Under the pieces are notes generated by a model. It saw nothing but the letters and a program-made list of their open reading frames with translations. It searched no databases and was not told where the DNA came from. A stretch of DNA of 64,000 bases from Hydrolagus affinis (lineage: Eukaryota). How positions within the stretch are numbered: the stretch's first letter is position 1; each line of letters opens with the position of its first letter. The DNA is taken from positions 1 to 64,000 of the forward strand of contig JAAILG010000627.1 of the NCBI GenBank assembly GCA_012026655.1. Direction: 5' to 3'. Positions 1-45,709 of the stretch are shown here, piece after piece. The position numbers and the translations under genes are program-made.

Positions 1-26
1 GAAAATTTCCATATCGACGGACCCTA
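1..26 (-). mobile_element. Terminus of a hAT-type MITE, running off the window start
   Basis: The reverse complement of 1-26 (TAGGGTCCGTCGATATGGAAATTTTC) is identical to the left end of the MITE at 35613-35638. Confidence 0.85.
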
Positions 27-49
27 GTTTATCACAGAGCCTAAAAGGC

Positions 50-180
50 AATGTAAAAGGTTATCAGGAAGGTTGGTTGAGGCCAGGATGCCGAGTCTAA
101 TTTAAAACAGCTTGATGGCTATTCTGGAGGGATGAGATCAAATAGCTGAAGGGTTCTCTTGATCGCAAACGATCTCGTGA
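50..180 (+). mobile_element. Possible degraded CR1 LINE 3' end
   Basis: Loose resemblance to CR1 3' ends (tttaaaacagcttgat...gctgaagggttctctt); boundaries approximate. Confidence 0.3.
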
Positions 181-30060: not shown

Positions 30061-30114
30061 ACGCTTGTATTACAGAGTTCTGCAGCACCCACTGAACTGT
30101 CTGTAATGAAAATA

Positions 30115-30230
30115 TATTAGTGATAATAGTTCCTGCATTTGAGATAGTGTCTTAGCATGTCTTCGAGACATCTTGATGCTCTTCACAGAATATACTGTAA
30201 AGTGAATTGACTGTTTATTTTGTGGGAGAT
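30115..30230 (-). mobile_element. SINE 3' tail
   Basis: cctgcatttgagatag...cttcacagaatatactgtaaagtgaattgactg. Confidence 0.8.
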
Positions 30231-33200
30231 GGAACATCATATATACTGCAAGTGTACCTCCAAAACTTCATCTGACGCTATCTGCTGAATGACTTTTACC
30301 ACTGATCTGCTCTGCTTTTTTTTCCACACTAGATTTCAACCAAAGCAAAGCTTTGACTCTGGTTGATGTGACTCCATACCATTGAACTAAGATACGGCGG
30401 TAGCTTGGTGTGCTGACTTGTAGGAACATTTACCGACTTGTTTACTGAGGTCCATCCACTCACTGTCTTCAACCGTAGCATCTTATTATATCATATACAC
30501 TACAATTATGAATGTATCATGTCAACAACCTGCTGCATTCATAAAAACCTTACTAACCACCAGTGGGAGGTAGACTTCATTGAATATTCCTGGATGCTTC
30601 TAGATTCAGATTTTGATAGATTAACTACGGTGTGCTTCACTGAGCTTTATTTTAATGCTAAAATAAAATTCTAGACTGGGCACAGATTTACCCTTTTTAT
30701 TTATTATAACCACCAGTTATTAATTTTAATTGGGGAGATAATATGTGGCCTGGCATTTACATCTGTTCACATTTTCTGTATGCCAGGACACCAAATAGTG
30801 AGTTCAGTGCTGCTCTCTCATAGATGACACAGCGCTCTAAGAACACATTCTTATTCTCATGTATTCTGGGTCGTGTTTTTCCTCAAAGGAATAATTTCTA
30901 TGATTTTTAATACAGTTAAATTTTTAAAAGCATGCTTATCATGTAACAGATTGACAGTTACACAAATACATCACATAATTATTGAGCCAGCACAACAGAT
31001 ACCATCTGCTAGCAGAATTGATCTAAGTACTCTAAGAATCAATTCAAATTGGCAGATTATCATTGTTCTGCAAACTAATCTTTGTCCATTACCATACATT
31101 GTACAGAAACATCAAGTTCTCTGGTGTTATAAATGGCAATCTGCCAAAGCTCTGTGTGAAAGAGGCCGCAGAGAGTGTCATTAATAATGTAGAGTATGCC
31201 AGGTACTCTTTTGAACAGTGAACGCTGAAGGAACAATTGAACCCAAGGACGCTTTGACTTTTTGCCTACACATCACAAGGACACTTTTTTGACAGTGCCA
31301 TGGTTTTAACAGTTGCAAGCTCATTGGCTTTTAAGCTTAGCAGCACAGATCAACACTGTCATATACTGTCTTCATTTGCCTGCGGAGAAGGCTGTTGAAT
31401 TGAAGTGGAATCGAAAGGCAGATACAATCATATTCTAGCAAGTCAATAATTCTGGAATACATTTTAAAAGACTAGAAAAATATTGCATTTAACATTTGAT
31501 GTGATCAAAAATAACTAGCATTGAATTGAAAATCAGATGCAATCAGATTTTGGCATCAGAAAAGTTTCAGGTCCACATCTTGCTTTAACTGGAAAATGTT
31601 AACTTTTCAAAAGATTGCAGTTGAAAAACTATTCACTAAAATTTAATATTAGCACTGAAGGAACATTTCTGATGCTTGCAAAATCTCAATTCACAAAAAC
31701 TTCCACCGAAAGCTTTTACACCTCCACCAGCACAATCGCAGAAATCAAGGAAACAGGTTGCTAATGATTGACTTGTGGGGATTTCAGGCTAAGTGAGGAA
31801 CTCATTCACTTTGTTGCTGCTGGGTTTTTGAGTGACTGGAATGTAGACTATTTAAACTGTTACCCGAATTTTTTTTTAACTTGCCCGATTTCCAATTTGT
31901 AGTTTTCAATAAATTGAGTATTTATAAATGGTACACATACATTACATACATGGCAGCGTGTAGAGAGAAAGATTGATCAGCAATACATTCTGCCGTTAGC
32001 TTTTTTTTAAACAAATCAATAAATTAACAAATTTTAATATTGTTTTTTAATTTTACTGTGATTTGTACACAACAATTCATAGCATCTCAAAGTATTGCAT
32101 ACAGCTGTTTTATCTAAAATGTAGTTTTTGGTGCAGGTTGGCAGGATATAAGGCTTGGGAACCCCATTGTGTGCGTTGAAATATTGCTGGAGTTCAACCA
32201 GCTAAAACCATATTATGAGCTATGTCCATCAAGCTTCCTGCTGATTGTCTTGCTAGGACTACACAACCGATTAGGGCTTTGGCTCACAGGGTTCACAGGA
32301 ACTGAATAGGAAGAATACCACAGCCCAAGGTGTCCTCATTTACTTCTGCCCAACTCCTAGGAGGAATGCAGAAATCTAAGATGGCCACACTCAGGGGTTT
32401 GCTGTTGTCTTTGGTTGCTACCATTACTCAGGAGTCAGGGGTATCTCAAAACATGTACTTACCATGTTCCTTAACCAAGGAATAAAATGCATTTAGAAAT
32501 TCTGCAGTTTCGAGCTCCCTTAGCATTTTATTGCATTTACAGTGCTATGGATGGTTAGACACCCCCCTTTAAAATGATAAACTGTGATTGCTTGTAATTT
32601 CAGTCAATTGATCACTCTTGCCCTTTCCGAAAGCAAAGCTTAATGTCACAGATCTGGAACCGATTAAGCGGGTCTCATCGTTTGCGAGCTTCCATGCACT
32701 ATTTCCTCACAGAAGGTAAAACCAGAAGGAATGGCCTCCACAAGCACTGAGCCTGCCTGTGCTTTTAAATACTACCCTGGGAGCCTTCCCTCAAAAACAA
32801 AAATTTTAAGAAGCACAGAGACGTTTGGCTGACCACAAAATAAGCTTTAAAATAAACTCGTTCTTCAAAGGGTAAAACCGAGCAATTGTCACTTTTTTCC
32901 GTGATATTTGCCTACTGACATTGCACTTTTGCGCAACAAACAAATGATGATCAAAGCAGTTCTAATGCCCCTTAGGGCAGATGAAAATTGCCTTTTTCAG
33001 TACAAATGTTTGTTTGGCGCATTAAGTGGCCAACGTGTTTGCTTCGTATAATTGATCAAATGAAATGGCTACATTTACTTTAGCAACCTACATTTTTTCT
33101 CCTTCCCTATTCAATAGAGCAGATAAAATGTCACGCATCATCACCAGGGATTGATTGAAACCAATTTTGTATGAAATAAACAAAATATATGGCAAAAAGT

Positions 33201-33329
33201 TGGTTCTGCACTCAAGCAAGAAGAGCATTCATAGATACTGAAGAAAGATTAAGGGAATGGTAATGAAGATGTTAGCACATGCAACAAATCTGTATAAGGG
33301 TATTATTTGCGTTGAATGAGCTGTGGAGG

Positions 33330-34000
33330 TGCAAAAAGCCATTATCTTCAAACTTGTGTGCAACTTAGGCATTAGGTTGGTTCCCAAGTTATCCTTCCTC
33401 CCCCACATCCGGTCCCTCACCAGCATCTTCCATCTCTGCAACATTGCCTGTCCCTGCCAATACCTTACCCCAAAAGCTGCTGAAACTCTGGTCCACTTTT
33501 GTCAACTCTTGGCTGGACTATTCCAGTGCCCTCCTTGCCAGTCTCCCCTCCTCCACAAAAAAACATCTCATACAAAACTCTGCCACCTGCATTCTCACCC
33601 ACACCAAACTTCGTACCCCGATTACCCCAGTCCTTGCTAAACTGCACTGGCTCCCTGTCACACACCAGATTAACTTGTGTTTAAATCCCTCCACTTCTCT
33701 GCAACTCCCTATCTCTCTACCCTCTCTCCTGGATCCGGTCCTGAATTCTTCGCTCCACCATCGGCGGCCGTACTTTCAGCCATTAGGTCACAAAACTTTC
33801 GAACTCCCTCCCTCAACCCCTTTGCCTCACCCCCTCCTTTCCCTCCTGCAGGTTGCACCTGAAGGCCTTTCTCTTCAACCGTGCTTACGGTCACCTTCCC
33901 CCTCCCTTTAGCTCGGCCTTGGGCTCCACCATTGTGAAGCACTCTGAGACGCCACCCAGCGCAGAAGGCTCTATATAAAAGCAAGTTGTTGATGTTGTTA
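33330..34000 (+). mobile_element. L2 LINE 3' fragment (ORF2 C-terminus, frameshifted)
   Basis: NSWLDYSSALLASLP...IQNSATCILTHT...ITPVLAKLHWLPV is the L2-clade C-terminal motif; ends tgtgaagcactctgagacgcc...ctatataaaagcaagttgttg. Confidence 0.9.
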
Positions 34001-34412
34001 TTGTGGTGATGGCCTCAAAGTCATGAAATAGATATGTACATACACGAGTGCCACTACTATCCTTCATATGACTTGAGTCCATGCCTTTCCTTGGAAACTC
34101 TGTTGGGCTAGAATCACTGTCTTGGCTTGAGTGATAACATCACTCACCTTGCCAACTGTGGGAAAGAGGAGATGTGTAAAAAAAAATGTAAATCAATAAC
34201 AGCACATTGTGATGTGTAAACTGGCACTGGGTCAATAACAGGAGTCTGAAGTCCTTGCAGTTCGATGTTCCAAAAAGTATCATTTTACAGATCAGTAAAG
34301 TTCAGTGAGTACCCGCTAATGATAATTAACTGCTCCCTACCTACATTTGAATTGGTTTGGAGTAGATTTCTCATTTTGAATGCGTATATTGATTATGCAT
34401 ATTTAGCAAAGA

Positions 34413-34528
34413 TTAATAATAATACTAATAATCATAATAATAATCCTTACATTCAATATAGCATCTCAGGAGGATGACTCATAAAGCTTTATGGTACATA
34501 CTGTAAAGTGTAACGACTGTATATTTGC
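34413..34528 (-). mobile_element. SINE 3' tail
   Basis: (TAA)n, ccttacattcaatatagc...actgtaaagtgtaacgactg. Confidence 0.7.
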
Positions 34529-34704
34529 TACATACTATTAATCTGTGCCTTGATTTCCATGCAGAATATTAACATGAAGTAAAATGGCAGGAACATAATG
34601 CCACACTGCAAATATCCTTCAAATACCTAGTGTCCATCAGATAATGTGTTACAGGCACTTAACATTTGGGTACGTTTGGCCAGCAAGTGCAGTGAACTTT
34701 CAAT

Positions 34705-34828
34705 TAATAATACTAATATTCCTAACGTTTGATATAACATCTTGTCACATTGTCGAGATGTCTCAAAACACTTCACAGGATTTATTGTAAAGTTGTGTGA
34801 CTGTGTATTTTGTGTGTGAAACATAGCA
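34705..34828 (-). mobile_element. SINE 3' tail
   Basis: tttgatataacatcttgtcac...gagatgtctcaaaacacttcacagg...gactgtgtattttgtg. Confidence 0.8.
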
Positions 34829-35612
34829 TTATTATTATTATTATTATTTCATTATTACTTTAAGGGAGATTATTAGATCTGTAAACTGATTCTACATTAT
34901 CATGTAATAAAAAGCTTTGGTTTAATGACTTTAATTGCCCCCCTTGACTGATACCAGTGCTAATTTGAGGATGTTTCTTTCATGGTTCAAAGTTATGATT
35001 TTCTCCTCAACTTTGACATGGATAATATTGGCTGTATTGGGGTGGGAATTGTAAATCTTAAGGAAATGCAAATGAATGATGAATGAAAGCACAAACCCTT
35101 GACTGATGCTCCAAGGCTGCTTTAATGAAGGGGAACATGATCAAAATGGTAAAACTGGATCAAATGGTGGATAGCAAGGGTAGAATTAGGATGCTTTAGC
35201 TGACAAAAGATATCTTGTGCAAATGAAATTTTTTTTGGGACTATTCATCCCTTATCTAAACTATGTAGAGAGCCAACACACCTGGGTGGAAATTATCAGT
35301 GTGATAAATTCAATCATTGAGACAGTGGGAGAGCTCACACTAGTAATGAAAATATTAATCAGGATTCCTGTTCCTGAATGCCACAGAGTGTCCTCTGCTT
35401 AGAGGCGTGAGTGCAAATAGATGACAGGATCAGATGTGGCTGTAATGTCAACTGTGGTTCCATAGCCTGGAGACACTGACTATCTCAGGTCAAAGATAAA
35501 CAATAACCACTTGAGCAAGATATTGAAGAGCGTATTAGGTAAGCAAGCCAGCAAGAGGAGGACATGCACGGACTTTTAGCAGGAACTTTATTTGACTAAA
35601 CTATATCTTTAG

Positions 35613-35991
35613 TAGGGTCCGTCGATATGGAAATTTTCCGATATCGATATATCGGTGGGCTCATATCGATATATACCGATATATCGATATTGCCAGGTTT
35701 CTTTATCCTGTGTATGCGCGCGCATTCGGATGTGTGCGTGCATTCCGATATGCACGCGCATTCCGTGCTCTAGGCCCAGGAGGTTTGCAATGCCGGTGAC
35801 AAGGTAAGTTGAAAAAGTTTGCATTATACCGATATAACCAATATATTGATATATTGCCGGACACGATATACCGATATTTGCGATATACCGACATTTTTTT
35901 TAATACCAAATTTTTCGACATACCGATACATTCAAATTTCCAATATTGGCGTATCGATCTGAAAAATTAACCGATATATCGCCGGACATTA
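35613..35991. mobile_element. Non-autonomous hAT-type DNA transposon (MITE)
   Basis: Imperfect TIRs TAGGGTCCGTCGATAT and (rc) TAATGTCCGGCGATAT; perfect 8-bp TSD ATCTTTAG at 35605-35612 and 35992-35999; many subterminal CCGATAT/ATATCG motifs. Confidence 0.9.
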
Positions 35992-36563
35992 ATCTTTAGT
36001 TAACTTAATACTAATGCAGAAAAATAAGGGAATAAATAGAGATAGATCAGTTAAAAAGCTTACATCCTCTTAAAAGTTCCGATGACCTGATTTGTTTCAG
36101 TGGATTTTATTGAAGTATTGTACATAATGAAAGGTTTTAGGTAAGCTCAGAAAAAAGTTTTTTTCACCTAACATTAGCCATTTACTGAAGTGAGTGATAC
36201 AATGTTTCTCAGATAGGCAGGATGTGACTAGTGGAGTGCCACAAGGATCAGTGCTTGTGCCTCAACTTACAGTATTGACAATCTATATCAATGATCTAGA
36301 CAGGACATAGAACCTAAAATATCTAAATTTACGGATGATACAAAACTAGATGAGGGATTAAGCTCCAAGGATGACACAAAAAGAATGAAACGGGATACAG
36401 ATAAACTAGGTGAGTGAACAAGAAGGTGGCAGATGGAATATAATGTGGGGAAGTGTGAAGTTATACAGAAAAACAGAAAAGCAGATTATTTTCTAGAAGG
36501 GGAGAGAATAGATAGTGTTAAAAGGATTTGGATATCCTTGTACACCAGTCGCAAAACTGTAGC

Positions 36564-36600
36564 AGTTCTGACGAAGGGTTGTAGACCCGAAATGTTGACT
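36564..36600 (+). ncRNA. Minimal type-I hammerhead ribozyme motif in the Penelope pLTR
   Basis: AGTT-CTGACGA-A-GGGT-tgtag-ACCC-GAAA-TGTT-GACT: CUGANGA core at 36568-36574, 4-bp stem II, GAAA at 36589-36592, GUU cleavage triplet, stem I AGUU/GACU. Confidence 0.7.
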
Positions 36601-37117
36601 CCTTTTCCTTTCTCCATGGATGCTGCCGGACCTGCTGAGTTTCCCCAGCAACTTCTGTTTTTGTTTCAGATTCCCAGCATTTGTAGTGTTTTGTGTTTTG
36701 TTTTTTGTTGAGGCAGTGAATGAGGCGATGGACGAAGTAGAGTTGAGGACGAGGGCAGTCTTGAGATAAACTGGATCGGTGTTGCTGAAGGGAGAGGTCG
36801 ATTGTATGCATATGAAGTCGCATACTGGAGAGAGTGGATCTGATGAGGCGACGAGACCAGTGATCGGAGGAGAGTTGAGTTTCACGGAGGTATCTGTGAC
36901 CCTGGTGGATTGAAAGCTGGAGGGGTGGAATTTAAGGCGGAAGCCATGTGGGATCAGTTACAGTTGCTGAGGAAAAGGATGTGGCTGTGGAAACGGGTTT
37001 TAGTGAACACACAATCAAACACAAGGAGGGTTGTAGATCCGAAACATTGACTCCTTTTCCTTTCTCCATGGATGCTGCCTGACCTGCTGAGTTTCCCCAG
37101 CAACTTCTGTTTTTGTT
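36564..37117 (+). mobile_element. Penelope-like retroelement fragment: pLTR, inverted ORF 5' piece, partial pLTR
   Basis: About 90-bp direct repeat (36575-36666 vs 37027-37117); 13-bp TSD gcaaaa(c/a)tgtagc at 36551-36563 and 37118-37130; the middle encodes on the minus strand VFDCVFTKTRFHSHILFLS and LSLQQHRSSLSQDCP, which resemble chondrichthyan Penelope ORF N-termini (from recall). Confidence 0.8.
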
Positions 37118-40100
37118 GCAAAAATGTAGCATGCAGGTACAACAAGCAACTAGGAAGGCTAATGGCATGTTGGCGTTCATTACAAAAAAAATTAGAATAT
37201 AAGGGAAGGGAAGTCTTGCTGCAACTGTATGGAGCCTTGGTGAGACTGCATCCAGAATATTGTGGGCAGTTTTGGTCTCCTTATTTAAGAAAGGATATAC
37301 TGGTACTTGCCTTAGAGGGGGTGCAGCATAGGTTCACTAGGTTTGTTCCTGGGATGAGGGGGTTGAGCTATGAGGATAGTTTGAGTAAACTAGGCCTATA
37401 TTGTCTAGAATATAGAAGAATTAGACGTGATCTTATAGAAACCTATAAGATTATTAAGAGGCATGACAGAGTAGAGATTGGGAGACTGTTTTCCCTGGTT
37501 GGAGAAACTACAACTAGGGATCACCGTTTTAAGATTAGGGGTCAGCCTTTTTGCACAGATTTGAGGAAACGCTTCTTCACTCCGAGAGTAGTGAATTTAT
37601 GCAATTCTCTACCCCAGAAGGCTGTAGATGCTCAGTCCTTGTACATATTCAAGACTGAGATTAATAGATTTCTTAGGGATAAAATAATTAAGAGATATGG
37701 GGATAAGATGGGCAGGTGGAGTTAGATTAGGAGATCAGCCATGATCTTGTTGAATGGCGGGGCAGGCTTGAGGGGCCGAATGGCTAACTGATGCTCCTTA
37801 TTCTTAAGTTCTTATGTTTTTCCTCTTGCCTATTATTAAAAGTCCCAGGCCAGGAATGGAGAAAAGCTGCAGAGCACCTCTCTGTAGCTTAGCTATAGCT
37901 TGCGTTATCTTTATTATTTACTTCAGGCAACTAAATTGGATTGGAAGCAACATGTGGGTGAATGATAAATTCGCTCACCCACATAAAAGCTCAAAAGCAA
38001 CAAAGGAACCTGATTGTGTTATTCAGGTTTCTATGATGTATGTTATCTTTTTGCTTGTTGCAGTAATAGTCAAGGGCAAGGTGACTGACTATATGATTCA
38101 AGATACAATCAGTAATAAGAACAATGGATATCTGACACCAAAAGTGTAAAATTACAGAATCCTTTTCCTGTTCTGCCAGGTTATCTTCTAACCCTAAAGC
38201 ATGCAGAAGAATTCAATATTTGGTTTATGAGTTAGAAACATGTTACTGCTGTGGAATACTCCAAAAGAGCCATATCTTTCAGTCTAAATTTGAAAGCAAT
38301 TCAGATTCCTTGTGAACGCCCACCCAGATATCGGAGAGCAAAGTAATGTAGCTCAGAGCAAAGAAAGGGAAAAGAGTCAACTTAGAAAGAAACCAGAAAA
38401 TAATAACTTCTGGAGCTCTCAGATGGAAAGACAGAGGTGAATAAACATCAGCAATGAGATGTTATAGCAGTATTCCGAACCATGTAAAGAGCACAGGGAT
38501 GCGAGCAGAACCAGTGTAGCTGAAGCCCTTTATTTAAGTACAACTAGTAAGTGTTTTTCAAGAGTGCAGTCAGCCTTATTGCGTTCCATCTCTATGTCCT
38601 CAGCCCACGTCTGATAGCAATTGAAAACAATTGCAGCTCATCTTGCCTTTCATTACAGTTACAGTGGGAGCACAACTGGTTTGGATTTATGATAGCCTGC
38701 TTGAATTTGCAGTAAATAGATAATTGCAGAATTCATGTACGAAACTGGATTTTTGTCGAACGACATATTTAACCTAGGCATGATGCATAGATGATTGAGT
38801 TTGGTAATTGCAACTGATTCAGGAAACATCGAGTAGTGCCTGCTGTATTTTAGGTTATGTGCACGGTATAAAAGCTCTATTCTATTCAGAAAATAATCAC
38901 CAGCCAAAAAACATCACACACATTGTTACCTAAACGTCCACACAAGGAATATTTGGAGCAAGTATTGTCAATGTTGAAACACTACCCTGCTTGAAGGGTG
39001 CTATATGTATGCAAGTTGTTGTTAAGTGTACAATACCTCTTTACACTTTTGTAACATTGAGCTTCTCTATGTCGTACCATACTGGATTTATTCAGGCTTT
39101 TAGCATTCATGCTTCTCTGATCTACTTCGCCACTATCCCATCATGGCTTCTTCACAGTTGAAGGGATGAAGCTTTGTACGAATGAGGCAGCGAAATAGTT
39201 ACATGCGTGCCAGTCAGCTGTGTAATGAATGATTTAATGGTGAAAGCAGATTGTGTGTGAGGAGCTGGCATGCAACCACTTTAGACCTTCCCAAGGTCCA
39301 ACAAAGCTGCTTTCTTCCCAACTTTATATCAGCTCGCATTCATGAACATGTGCTTTCAGACCCAGAGCTATGTAATACAACCTTGATATGTTTCCACCAC
39401 TGCTTGCAAACATCCCGTGTAAGTGAACTCCTAAAGCCCTAGGAGACTACTTGGTAAAATACCTCCCACATTGTGACCTTAGCAAAAATGGATATTACAC
39501 AGTGTAATTTTATATTAATAGCCAATGTAGTGGCATTCAGAAGCTGCGTTGCAGCCCATTGAAGCACACTGGAAAACACATTATGTGAGTACTGGTTCTG
39601 TGGATTGGATTCCTTTCTCCCCAGAAGAGCCTCAATGAGTTCAGTAACCAAACACTTGTGTCAAAGCAAAGGGGAAACAGGAAATTAGATATCTGTGGAG
39701 TGTAGTTGAGGATTTAACCCACACAGATAAGCTGTTCACAACAAAATATACAATATAGGGGGCTGCCTTAAAGGGAGCGTCCCCAAAAAACTATGTGCAC
39801 AACCTGTGTGCTGTGAACCTATTCACACTCCCCACTAAGAAGGGAGGGATAGGGAAGTGGGGGTACATGACCTCATTTGTAAGTGTGTCCTGCAAAGGAT
39901 GGCAGAACCCCGAAGCCTGTGGTCCGTTCAGCAAACCAGGTTGCTGGTCGCAGTATCACTGTCTGAGACAATTCTAAATATATATCAACAAATAGATATA
40001 TATTTTAAACAAAGATAAAAGCAGGGGTATAACAATTGCACGTTAAAAATTTATTTTAAAAATAATCAATTAATTATTTATTAATTAATTAATTCAGATA

Positions 40101-41672
40101 TTAGTTAGCATGACCTTTTTTTTCGTTAGTAAAGACAGAAAGGAGGAAAGGTTGTTTACTCTCTTTAGGGAATAATTTATTCTCCTTCCCTACTTTGTTA
40201 AAGGAGGCTTCAAGAATTTGTTCCTGGGATTCCACTCGGCTAATCTTGTACATTTCAGCGCAAATGTAAAACAAGGAAAGAAGAGTGTAATGTACCAATG
40301 AATGACATCTTATACATCAGACATCAAATCAATGTGAGAAGCTACCTGATCATTGTTTTACAGATTCAAAGTACAGTACTGTACTTGGTTATTTTCTTGT
40401 TCCCAAAACTTTACAACATATTTATCTGGAAAATTAACTTTCAGAGTGAGAGAATTTATCGAGCAAGCCACTATTGTGCAAACTTTCACTCAATCCGATA
40501 AAAAGCATGACAGACAGCATCTTAGTGCAATTCTGAGGAGTGAACGCAGGCATATTCATGATAAATATTAAAAGCTGCAGACACTCTGGAAATGGGGGGA
40601 AAGTTAGACTTAATTTGCATTGAGTTTCTTCTATTGAATGCCTGTAATATGATCAAAGATGTACAGTATATTCAATATACACTCTCAGTATAATAGTGAT
40701 TTTTTTTAAACCCAAGAGTGCACTCTCCTATAATGTATTGAAGAACATTTAAACACAGCCTTACCAATTCAACCATCTATTGTGATCTCATGCATTTTGC
40801 AAATAACAGCAGGGATTAAACTCGCCTGCAGAGAATCCTAGCAGTTTAGCTATAATGCTTAAAAAGGGATTGGATAAATTACACTGTCTGGGCCAAATGC
40901 CACCAATGCAGATTCCTGCACTGATTCTTCAGTTAAGTTATGAATTTGCCTGAAAAGAAACAAACCCAGCATAACAGAGCGATGCTGCGGGATTGTACTT
41001 CATTGTTGAAGCTTACATCCCCACTCTGTACAAAAGTAGACTTGATCCCGAGCTAAGCCAGTGTTATATTCAACTAAACTATTTTGAACCTTAGGTATGG
41101 CAAGACACTGACTTCATCTTCCTGTATTTAAATGGCTATCGCCTCACCACTACGATTATTAGCAGGTTGCATATATAAGGATAGGGACATCTATAAAGAT
41201 ACACATATTTGAAGCACATTTCTGTCTGTAGATACTGTATCAATTTCTGAAATTGACTTGGTTTATTGCTTAATTGGTTGAGTCATACCTTTATATCAAC
41301 TGTGTCTTCCTGCATAGCAACTTTGTCATTCTCATGACTGTGATATTGGGTGGATTGCAGTGAAATCCTACCAGTCATTTAAACGATAGACTGATATTGA
41401 TCTGAATAGTTGTTATTAACTGGGAAGATGGTTGATAAGTTGACAAAAGAATATTAATGCAGATGTATTTTTGATGCAGAAGAGACAGACAGAAATGTCA
41501 GTTGTGTCAGAGAGTAGCTGAAATTGCACAAGATGTTTGTGAGATGGAGAATACTCATCAATGTAAGAGATAGAGATAGGGGGAAATGCATATTGAGCTA
41601 AGTAGATAATGTGGGAGTGAACATGTAGCGAGTGGGGTGTAAGTGAATGTGAGGTGTGATGGTAGATAGATG

Positions 41673-41772
41673 AATATTAATCCTTGCATTTAATGTGAAA
41701 TCTAAAATGTTGAAATGCTTCTAAGCATTTCACAGAGAACTGCTATCAAGTGTAGTGACTGTATATTTGTGC
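41673..41772 (-). mobile_element. SINE 3' tail, diverged
   Basis: atccttgcattt...gcatttcacag...gtgtagtgactgtatatttg. Confidence 0.65.
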
Positions 41773-41844
41773 TTCACATACGTAATTGCGGTGTGGGTGA
41801 ACATCAGCAAGAGACAACAATAGGTAGAAATGAATGAGAACGTC

Positions 41845-42130
41845 CTAAGGCTTGGAACAATCAGTGTTTCAGACCCGAGCTGGGGATTGTTTTCAGGGAG
41901 AATGGAGGGCTAGGGGTGGGGTATGGGGGGAAGGGGTGTGTCCGAAGGCACAGTCTAAGCAGAGGATCTTGAAATTGGTCTTGAAGGAGGCAAGGAAGGG
42001 TGCGAGGTGGAGGGACTGCGGGTTGGAGTTCCAGAGGGTGGGTGCTGAGTAGCTGAAGGCTCGCTCGCCAATGGTGGGGCGGGCGAGGTAGGGTACATGA
42101 AGCAGGCCAGAGCCTGCTGAGAGAGGGAGC
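41845..42130 (-). mobile_element. L2 LINE 3' fragment
   Basis: The minus strand encodes SGLLHVP...TIGERAFSYSAPTLWNS...LASFKTNFK. Confidence 0.85.
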
Positions 42131-42280
42131 GGGCAAGTTACACAAGTGGGAGAAGTTAAATAGGAGTAATAAAACCAATGACAAGAAAACCTAGAGATTG
42201 AAAACGATTTCACACCATTCTCAAAGATCTCAGAAACTGAAGGGATACCTGTGGTGCTTTGAGTTACAGTATGTATCTTT

Positions 42281-42305
42281 CACACACACACACAGACACA
42301 CACAC
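42281..42305. repeat. (CA)n microsatellite
   Basis: cacacacacacacagacacacacac. Confidence 0.9.
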
Positions 42306-43221
42306 TAAACAGATGCATATGTAACATTCAGCGCCACAGTCCTGCCTTTACTGGAAAGGTATGGCATCGACAGAAGTGACCATTTGCAAACGTTACACAA
42401 ACTATTGTTGTGTTGAAAATGAAAGGGGGGCTGTTACTCTTTCCCTGCTTCAAGATAGCGTAATCCCCCGACTGTCCAGCCTTCCAAAACTGTCTTTAGA
42501 CTGCATTCTTTAACTGCACTATACAAGCACAAAGACTATAGCTAAATTATACGGGGAAGCTGGAATCATTTTATTTTTGCAGAAAAAATGATACAACCTG
42601 TTTTAGCTGAACTGTTTTGTTGGAATCCTCATTAATCTTCAGTTCCAACATCTGTGTTTGCTTCCTTTCGCTCCCTTCTCTTTTCTTTTTTGTTCTCTCT
42701 CGGCCCGTTTTCCTTCCTTTCCCCTGCCTTCTCTCTCTCTTAAATGACACAGTATAAATGCATTGAATAAACTAGGTGTAACGTGAGGGGTGGGGGAATG
42801 TATGTGCATAGCCAATATGTTCAATAAGTTTGAAAAAAAAGCTGCATATTGTACTGTGCACATCCTAAGGTTTATATGACTTTTATGGAGTGAGCTGAAC
42901 AAGCACAGGCAAGCTGGAACTATTTTATTTTGGGCTATAAATCATACATGACCGGGTAAATGCAAAGGCAATCAGAACTGACGAAACATTTGCGCTGTCT
43001 CTCTCTGAAGTGTACTTATTGTAACATCTTACGATCATCACCCACCTTTGCTGCAATGTGTAAAATTCACAGTCACTTAATTTTCCCTCTTGCTTCCATT
43101 CCTTCTCTTTTCTTTCTATAAAAATCTTTTAAATGCCTGCCTGGTTTCTTCCTGTTGCCATTTCACCATTCTGTTCCCCGTGGTGTTACTTTTCCCTCAC
43201 GCTGTCCCTGTGTTTGATGTC

Positions 43222-43352
43222 AATAATAATAAATAATAATCCTTGCATTTGATGTAGCGCCTTATCACGCCTTCGAGATGTCTCAGAGCGCTTCACAGAA
43301 TATACTGTAAAGTGAATTGACTGCATATTTTGCAGGTGAAACGCAGCAGCTT
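43222..43352 (-). mobile_element. SINE 3' tail, well preserved
   Basis: ccttgcatttgatgtagcgccttatcacgccttcgagatgtctcagagcgcttcacag. Confidence 0.9.
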
Positions 43353-44679
43353 TGCGTTCTATACTAAGAATGCTTGGGTGAAACAAATTAGATACATTTG
43401 AGATGTGCAATGCTAATAACAAAGCGACATTAACATTATGAGACTTACATGAGTTTTGTGGATTGACCCTAGCAAGATTTGAAATAGTTCTATTTCCTGC
43501 ACAGCAGCAAGTGTCAGAGTTAATTTACTTTAATAAAATCATATTGGAAATGACTGTTCAATGTATCTTTTGTTGCTATTGCATTAGGAATTTCAACCTT
43601 GACAGACTTTTGGCTTTGCATAATTTTCTTATACCACAGACTTCAAATACAATATCTTTACACAATGCTCCGTAAAAGTTTTATTTAGCACCTGTGAAAT
43701 ATTTTAAACATGCTCAGATCTAGGAAGAAAGAAATTGCATTTTGTGGCAAGCATGGACTTTAACCAAGCACTATGCTATTTTGAAGAGAAACTACATATT
43801 AAATAGTCAAACTCAGAACCGTCGTTACCTGAACACTTAAAGGGAACAGTCACGTTGGAGGCTATCTCAAATTTTATCCAATTAAAGCAAGTTTGGAAGT
43901 TAATGAGATTTTGATAAAACACAACACTCTACAAAATGAGTTGATGAGATTTATTGAATGCTTTCAAAGTTATTTGTCAAAGTCATCACAAAAGTTCTGA
44001 TGTACAGTCAATGGTGGCTGTCTTGAGATTCAGCTTGGAAAAATAGTGAGACATTGATGGTAGTGTCTAAACAATGCGATTGTGTAGAGCGTAGTGTGCC
44101 TGTATTATTCATAATAATTGGTGTGAGTGCAAACCCTATCCTTGTTGAACTGAAAACAAAAGTAAATAGATGACCAGCTCGTATAAACTGCTGAGTAGTT
44201 GGATGCAACTCTTTTCTGAATCAGTCAGTACAACGAATTACTGGCTGTCAGGTATCTTGGATATTACACAGAGAACCAATAAGCTAATAATAGGAAGTTA
44301 CTTGTGAAGTTTGATGATAAGCAAGTGCCATGAACTGACACTTTTTTCTCTCTCGTTGAAAGAAAATAAGCTTTCGTCAGGCGAGTTATGATGTTCATGA
44401 GAAGTTGTTATTATTGCTGGCAGCTATCCTGTTCCAATTGTAAGTGACTTATGAAGGTTCTTCAGGTAGTTATGTGTGAAATGTAAGGAGAATGAACTGA
44501 AGAATTTGCTCAGAGATACCCAGTGTGTGTGGCCACCCCATGATCAAAGCAAACGCTGTCATCAGTAGCATCCTTTTCAGTAGAATGGGTATTAATCTTC
44601 TGTCAATGTAATCAAAGCAAACTTGCATTTTCTGGTTAGTTAATAATAACTTTTCCATTTCATAATACGCCACATCAGG

Positions 44680-44900
44680 ATTTTATGTAAACTGTAGTAA
44701 CTGTGTGTTTTGTAGGCAAACACAGCGACCAATTCTCAAACAGTAATATCAGACAATCAGCCATGAAGTGAATGACAAATTGTATTCAGGGGATTGTTGA
44801 CCAGGATACCAGGAGAATCTTCCTTCTCTTTTTGACTTTTGTCAAAGCATCTTTGTCGTCCACTTAAACAGACAGAGAGCATCTCGGTTTAATGTGCTTC
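44680..44900 (-). mobile_element. Deu-domain SINE fragment
   Basis: tttgtaggcaaacacagcgacc...gaccaggataccaggag...tctcggtttaatg. Confidence 0.7.
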
Positions 44901-44982
44901 TCTGTGACCTGTCATGGGACCTTTGGATCAGATGAAATTATGTGCACTTTTTCTCATAGTTAGCATTTGAAATTTGTCAGAA

Positions 44983-45545
44983 CAATAACAAAATTACACT
45001 TGTATAGCACCTTTCACGTCAGGAGGATGTTCCAAGGTATTGGGCAGTCATTGTTTCAGATCCCAGTTGGGGGGGCAGGGGGGTAGAGGGAAAGCGGGGG
45101 ATTTGAGTTGACCGATGGGACTGTCGAAGAGAAGGGTCTTGAGGCGGGACTTGAAGGACACTAGGGAGGGGGCAAGGCGGATGGATTGCGGCATGGAGTT
45201 CCAAAGGTTCGGGGCAGAGTGAATGATGGTTCTCCCTCCAATGTGGGGCGGATGGGTTGGGCGACATGGAGCAGGCTGGAGCCTACTGAGTGGAGGGGGC
45301 AGGCAAGTTGGTAGGGGGTTAGGAGGTTGCAGAGATAGGGTGGGGAGAGACCATGGAGTACTTTGAATGTGAGGACCAGGACCTTGAATTGAATCCTTTG
45401 GGTGATGGGGAGCTAATAGAGTCGTGCGAGGAGGGGGAGATGGGGTCACAAAGCTTGGAATGATAGAGCACATGGCCCACAGATTATCTGGATTATCTGA
45501 AGCCTGTAGAGGGAGGAATTGGGAAGGCCGACAAGCAGGAACATT
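44983..45545 (-). mobile_element. L2 LINE 3' fragment
   Basis: The minus strand encodes IGGRTIIHSAPNLWNSMPQSIRLAPSLVSFKSRLKTLLF and LVGLPNSSLYRLQIIQ; tail at about 44985-45040. Confidence 0.9.
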
Positions 45546-45709
45546 TTGAAGGGTAAAGTGCAGGGCACTGGGTTACAGCTCTGCCTTTTTCCCTTTTTAA
45601 AAAAAAATCTGTAGATTTCAAATGCTAAACTAAGTTTCAGTAGCAAGGGGAAGAGGTACTAGATGCAGATTCTGACAACATTCAATTTTTCATGAAACAA
45701 ATCTACCGG

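Follow-up and report, generated by a model that had tools for sequence, protein, structure and literature searches.

The 37-mer at positions 36564-36600 of the window (the whole stretch of DNA analysed, 64,000 nucleotides from Hydrolagus affinis) heads the pseudo-LTR (pLTR) of an abundant Penelope-like retroelement (PLE). Our analyses support its assignment to the minimal type-I hammerheads of the PLE class, with self-cleavage predicted from membership of that class. The motif is of an ordinary, already described kind, the minimal PLE hammerhead of 2014, and represents one further family. Taken together, the data are best explained by a minimal hammerhead at the head of a PLE pLTR, a window copy that is a decayed stub, and family copies made from uncut RNA starting at position 1 of the pLTR, a combined reading that we consider probable. 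The map of family boundaries bears on the open role of PLE hammerheads, in that thousands of fossil insertions point to an uncut template, which usually ended at the first base of the motif. A simple prediction of this map is that the 5' end at position 1 is capped, and it speaks against cut-and-circularised RNA as the main template of these copies. A caution also follows for such maps: junctions at the cut site can stem from the self-complementarity of stem I, and controls at neighbouring positions are needed.

Table 1. Coordinates of the predicted hammerhead, of the insertion carrying it and of the interrupted host repeat
Feature	Position	Strand	Remarks
TSD, left copy (14 bp)	36551..36564	+	13/14 identical to right copy; last A also opens stem I
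Minimal type-I hammerhead motif (predicted)	36564..36600	+	Family positions 1-37; C15.2>U at 36593; predicted cut after 36596
Stem I, 5' strand AGTT	36564-36567	+	
Core CTGACGA	36568-36574	+	
Extra A after CTGACGA	36575	+	
Stem II GGGTT/GACCC	36576-36580/36584-36588	+	5 bp including a U-G pair, 3-nt loop
GAAA	36589-36592	+	
TGTT	36593-36596	+	
Stem I partner GACT	36597-36600	+	
pLTR copy 1	36564..36704	+	Positions 1 to ~140, including ~35-nt tail
ORF fragment of the element (5' part), inverted and frameshifted	36700..37030 (about)	-	92% to L086 over 306 nt
pLTR copy 2	37027..37117	+	Positions 12-102, no tail; G16.2>A at 37046
TSD, right copy	37118..37131	+	13/14 identical to left copy
Older host LINE fragment, split by the insertion	36454..37383	+	Related L091 frame matches both sides

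The hammerhead motif and the family consensus

The letters given for the motif in the initial annotation are present exactly as written. Stem I comprises four base pairs, one of them U-G. The helix proposed as stem II is the same one, but its 4 bp and 5-nt loop were re-read as 5 bp and a 3-nt loop. When the intact-core pattern was searched for exactly across the genome, 2,569 sites were retrieved, compared with none for a reversed control pattern. A looser pattern gave 318 matches, the first 100 of which were decayed copies of the same family, with no second family among them.

A 24-mer anchor downstream of the motif had 3,624 matches genome-wide, the first 100 of which, in contig order, were taken as an unbiased sample. 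The family majority was found to keep CUGANGA, GAAA, the NUH core, the pairing of both stems and the AACGTT palindrome, in agreement with the consensus check on core and stem pairing that the initial annotation had set. Every feature listed for metazoan minimal hammerheads in the text of PMC4209133 is shown by this majority, namely the type I arrangement without a loop 3, a stem I of 4-5 bp, a stem II with G10.1-C11.1, a single extra base following position 9 and a palindromic 15.2-16.2, the last being lost in both window copies. Amongst 90 copies, family positions 30-31 read CG in 60, TG in 9, CA in 14, CT in 5 and AG in 1, with one gap. The two window variants are both decay products of the majority CG, as had been claimed when they were described as reciprocal CpG-decay products. 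All three CpGs decay alike (non-CG in 22/77, 30/89 and 30/90 copies), and core, stems and palindrome were all intact in 14 of the 48 copies covering them. Mean divergence from the family majority was 5.5%.

In 15 distinct alignment rows chosen among the pattern hits, 96% of the stem positions were paired. Subfamily changes, which affect both stems, preserve pairing and are one-sided (C-G versus U-G); C at position 4, for instance, is carried by 204 copies. A U-A pair in stem I was rejected as a subfamily change, being at mutation level with 17 copies genome-wide, two of them an unpaired C-A. No two-sided compensatory change was found in nine pairs, nor did covariation exceed that of shuffles, in copies that, at ~5% divergence, are too similar for covariation to be expected to show. 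As covariation was not found, membership of the hammerhead class rests on the descriptor and on location.

Anatomy of the window insertion

The left boundary lies at the first base of stem I, as initially annotated, and is ambiguous by one base since the last A of the TSD doubles as that base. Both of the pLTR copies previously described are present, although the second is 5'-truncated and lacks CUGANGA, which had gone unmentioned. It starts at family position 12, without the 5' strand of stem I, and reads GAAACATT, with CATT at 37045-37048. The direct repeat headed by the motif is 94 nt long, its copies being 95% identical and the second lying 452 nt downstream, whilst the first pLTR copy differs from the family majority at five of 135 positions. 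Between the two repeats there is an inverted ORF fragment, which holds a GxKF-type N-terminal motif, and no sense ORF. Microhomologies of 4-5 nt are seen at each of the two inner joints. The insertion probably formed from two cDNA-derived stubs and an inverted ORF piece, joined by template switches at microhomologies, the order of events being our reconstruction.

The insertion interrupts a LINE fragment, which is CR1-like judging by its motifs. A frame of L091 matches this host repeat at 36454-36579, 37122-37175 and 37198-37383, and the fragment returned no Pfam match. More broadly, 24 of the 38 window frames of at least 100 aa were without a Pfam match; the other 14 (33320-45572) lie outside that set, three of them having been scanned separately. 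Since predicted proteins of L086 homologues gave no tblastn match in the window, the ORF piece is tied to the reverse transcriptase (RT) by DNA collinearity with L086, L087 and others.

The parent element and its relatives

A genome search with the repeat gave 1,439 candidates, of which 40 were scored. The Penelope origin put forward in the initial annotation was borne out by near-full-length relatives in which GIY-YIG, a CX4CX2C linker and an RT are found. One of them, L086, has the order pLTR, ORF, 3' UTR and pLTR plus tail. Its RT matched PF00078 at E 1.5e-6, with 28.6 bits below the Pfam gathering cut-off of 29.6, and the GIY-YIG-type end of L091 (E 0.0084) likewise fell below the gathering cut-off. 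DKG, YIDD and CX4CX2C motifs were also found, the linker in L086, L090 and L091. A total of 2,356 homologues of L086 were retrieved at E<=1e-10 among 7,985 scored, with RVT_1 annotated in many and GIY-YIG in some, and one homologue (P0013) clears the Pfam GIY-YIG cut-off. The best named homologues include shark and ray proteins with 58-64% identity, which points to a cartilaginous fish as the likely host. A PDB search with the family frames gave no match.

The layout of EN+ PLEs, a single ORF with RT followed by a C-terminal GIY-YIG, was seen in L086, L091 and the homologues, as were two cysteines between GIY and YIG (below cut-off in L086 and L091); the window copy holds a 5' fragment of this ORF only. 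Further EN+ PLE traits of the family are its pLTRs, inverted copies, 30-40-bp tail and variable TSD, a TSD-like match being present in 19 of 26 non-inverted copies. In the relatives the motif is followed by the tail, a short leader and the ORF, all on the same strand, and it lies in a pLTR, sense to the ORF, in L038, L047, L048, L086, L087 and L089. A non-LTR retrozyme, in which tandem non-coding units are bounded by canonical hammerheads, was rejected as an identity for the element, the copies being solitary or inverted stubs or ORF-bearing fragments.

Short tandem-like units were observed at L034, L035, L038, L047, L048, L051 and L052, in which the ORF is broken at differing points and runs straight into a second pLTR at its position 1; microhomology or an A/T run marks some of the joints. 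These resemble template jumps from the RNA 5' end rather than a single deleted subfamily. At L047:1240-1260 and in relatives, a pyrimidine tract and an AG two bases before the likely start codon resemble the acceptor of a 5' UTR intron, for which no donor was identified. Independent insertions at L008, L011, L013, L108, L126, L145 and L171 abut the same short stretch of an abundant repeat (D1/D2), hinting at a preferred target site.

Boundaries of family copies

The placement of the left boundary at the first base of stem I extends to the family: 48 of the 100 sampled copies start at -2..+5, with 16 at 6..13, 16 at 14..65, 13 further up at -183..-3 and seven beyond; of those at 14..65, a single copy starts within 32..36, the region of the cut site. 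According to a script-based classification, the hotspot at -2..+5 was used by 29 of 62 inverted-arm copies and by 19 of the 38 others, a few of these 19 carrying short inverted remnants. Where copies bear an ORF, their upstream pLTR likewise begins at positions 1-5 (L038, L044, L045, L047 and L048). Aligned reads and contigs show the boundary too: depth drops several-fold at L086:1870-1872 in all four runs, and loose ends pile up there in three of them. The 3' ends form two clusters, with 50 at 97-111 and 46 at 132-144, and each of 17 inverted pairs has one arm ending at 100-109 and the other at 135-150. A two-class 3' end tail signature of this kind is tied to two RT start sites in the published description of an anole element (PMC11167929).

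Patterns allowing two base mismatches were used genome-wide to look for starts at the cut site, a design that misses subfamilies differing in the downstream pattern. Junction matches numbered 18 at position 34, the cut site, compared with 9 and 25 at control positions 29 and 37, and no cut-site footprint in excess of the controls was therefore detected by these patterns. By eye, the 18 comprised eight stem-I fold-backs, four mutated or deleted full motifs, four other inverted joints and two plain flanks. Nine of the 25 position-37 matches (L252, L253, L256, L259, L260, L262, L263, L269 and L273) share a recurrent inverted joint, in which position 8-9 of one arm meets position 37 of the other. 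RNA reads (fragmented poly(A), both strands) showed no pile of ends; as their source organism is not shown to be the host, they give no evidence on expression or cleavage.

Comparison with published elements

Minimal hammerheads have been described in the pLTRs of metazoan PLEs, including Xena, Poseidon and Neptune of fish (Cervera and de la Pena 2014, PMC4209133). In addition to the features listed above, the text of that paper reports a 4-bp stem I and thousands of mostly solitary copies, as found here; the present stem II has 5 bp, in contrast to 7-8 bp for Schistosoma. That text mentions neither cartilaginous fish nor a boundary hotspot at the first base.

The description of PAc, the Poseidon of Anolis carolinensis (Frangieh et al. 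2024, PMC11167929), agrees with our family in two 3' end classes ~35 nt apart, and in copies from unprocessed RNA with no reads ending at the cut site. It differs in that the PAc motif overlaps the start codon, whereas in our parent element the likely start codon is ~170 nt downstream of it, in the lack of the linker zinc finger present here, and in AC-rich 3' ends, those of our family being U/G-rich on the sense strand. With Neptune and Nematis EN+ PLEs, as described by Craig et al. (2021, PMC8557442), the family shares a C-terminal GIY-YIG, a CX2-5CxxC linker, the DKG motif, 5' truncation, inverted copies and a 30-40-bp tail. The inverted piece in the window, however, is an ORF fragment between direct pLTR stubs, whereas an inverted pLTR is described for Neptune and Nematis insertions. 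The same source gives the zinc finger of the linker as a mark of Neptune or Nematis, and the element likely belongs to Neptune, judging by this linker motif that Nematis also bears. Penelope of Drosophila virilis (Schostak et al. 2008, PMC2377424) is described as starting inside its pLTR, with initiator and downstream promoter elements, as is proposed here; its intron begins 46 bp after the start and its hammerhead follows the intron, unlike the present motif, which would be at the very start.

A 2026 preprint describes vertebrate retrozymes, one chondrichthyan among them, linked to pLTRs, and a review restates the dimer model of minimal hammerhead cleavage. Our literature search, which covered few subscription papers and had Repbase outside its scope, found no paper on the family or on the boundary hotspot; Lunse, Weinberg and Breaker (2017), or the supplements of papers, may list this or related families.

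Template, start site and activity

As the boundary map is without an accumulation of cut-site starts, copies of the family appear to have been made from uncut RNA, which agrees with the in vitro finding, in the account of PMC11167929, that cleavage is dispensable for insertion. By analogy with published relatives, the motif of the parent element would cut only as a dimer or with the help of protein. Reverse transcription likely begins at two sites ~35 nt apart downstream of the motif; as the copies show, it reads through the uncut cleavage site and usually stops at -2..+13. The simplest cause of the usual stop would be run-off at the RNA 5' end, with transcription starting at an initiator-like CCAGTTC, whose A opens stem I. 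This sequence fits the initiator consensus, although that consensus is short. We lean slightly towards position 1 being the transcription start, and hence the RNA 5' end, because of this initiator fit, the internal pLTR promoter of D. virilis Penelope, and the start of ORF-bearing pLTRs at 1-5. Against this, a copied cap G was not apparent, as the 5' junctions of solo copies lack a regularly occurring extra G. The hotspot was also considered as a splice junction (CAG at positions 0-2), which was rejected because the four copies that start at position 3 share no recurrent upstream exon.

If position 1 is indeed the start, the hammerhead would span +1 to +37 of the mRNA, and cleavage would remove a capped leader of 33 nt. 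It is conceivable, if rather doubtful, that cleavage serves as a decapping switch shedding this leader, such that only uncut RNA is retrotransposed and apparent footprints can be faked by stem I fold-back.

The window copy itself is likely inactive, being a rearranged, CpG-decayed stub. Calculated dimer helix energies were -1.7 kcal/mol for ACGU/ACGU, +0.1 for AUGU with an intact partner and +2.6 for the AUGU homodimer. Because its second repeat is truncated and an inverted ORF fragment intervenes, the insertion cannot form a dimer for cutting after 36596, and cleavage there would need a partner RNA in trans.

Alternative explanations

A chance resemblance to hammerheads might be suggested by the core pattern, which without stems turned up in 15 of 100 window shuffles, and by an Rfam scan of 33000-43000, in which no hammerhead family was found at E<=10. 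The full descriptor with both stems, however, occurred in only two of 300 approximate dinucleotide shuffles, and the motif sits where its class carries it, in the pLTR of an element with RT and GIY-YIG; both observations largely refute this reading, to which we assign a negligible probability. The 37-mer folded as a monomer was no better than shuffles (z -0.89), with CUGA buried in the lowest-energy form, as is expected since the motif is said to work as a dimer. It is rather more conceivable, though still improbable, that the motif is vestigial, namely a promoter or a sequence recognised by RT, in which hammerhead letters were kept and cleavage was lost in this lineage. The lack of both a cut-site footprint in genomic junctions and covariation would accord with this, as would the weak cleavage published for metazoan minimal hammerheads (PMC4209133) and the dispensability of cleavage in the anole element. 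Against it, all subfamilies seen conserve every core letter and the two stems but differ in the loop of stem II, and the anole motif is reported to have cleaved in the presence of its protein (PMC11167929).

The hotspot could instead reflect a structure-induced stop, whereby the cDNA, after copying the entire motif, folds back through the stem I/II complements or RT stalls at an upstream C-run. Fold-back through stem I does occur, the reverse complement of the 5' end of the motif standing just before eight of the 18 position-34 junctions, and inverted-pair arms account for 29 of the 48 hotspot copies; we nonetheless regard this as unlikely, in that half of the copies classed as non-inverted share the hotspot, the upstream pLTRs of ORF-bearing copies do so too, and the helices involved span only 4-5 bp. 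As to activity in the window, the insertion might act as a split hammerhead, in which copy 1 provides the catalytic part and copy 2 serves as the substrate, so that a + strand read-through RNA would be cut after 37048 instead of 36596. Having decayed reciprocally to AUGU and ACAU, the two copies can again form a stem III of four Watson-Crick pairs (-0.3 kcal/mol), and copy 2 retains UU-GACU. Yet when the insertion was folded, stems I and III formed between the copies with a probability of 0.000, chance alone would be expected to yield reciprocal decay at these rates, and there is no sign of + strand transcription at the locus (no Pfam match in 24 long window frames), making this very improbable compared with an inactive stub.

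Other repeats in the window

A region at 35620-35990 is rich in CGATAT/ATCGAT words and nested inverted repeats, is CpG-rich for the genome, and is possibly a small DNA-transposon derivative. A SINE-like repeat is present in three copies, at 30110-30238, 34700-34828 and 43220-43348. Fragments at 33369-33911, 41861-42279 and 45048-45572 resemble what we take to be the ends of L2-type LINEs.
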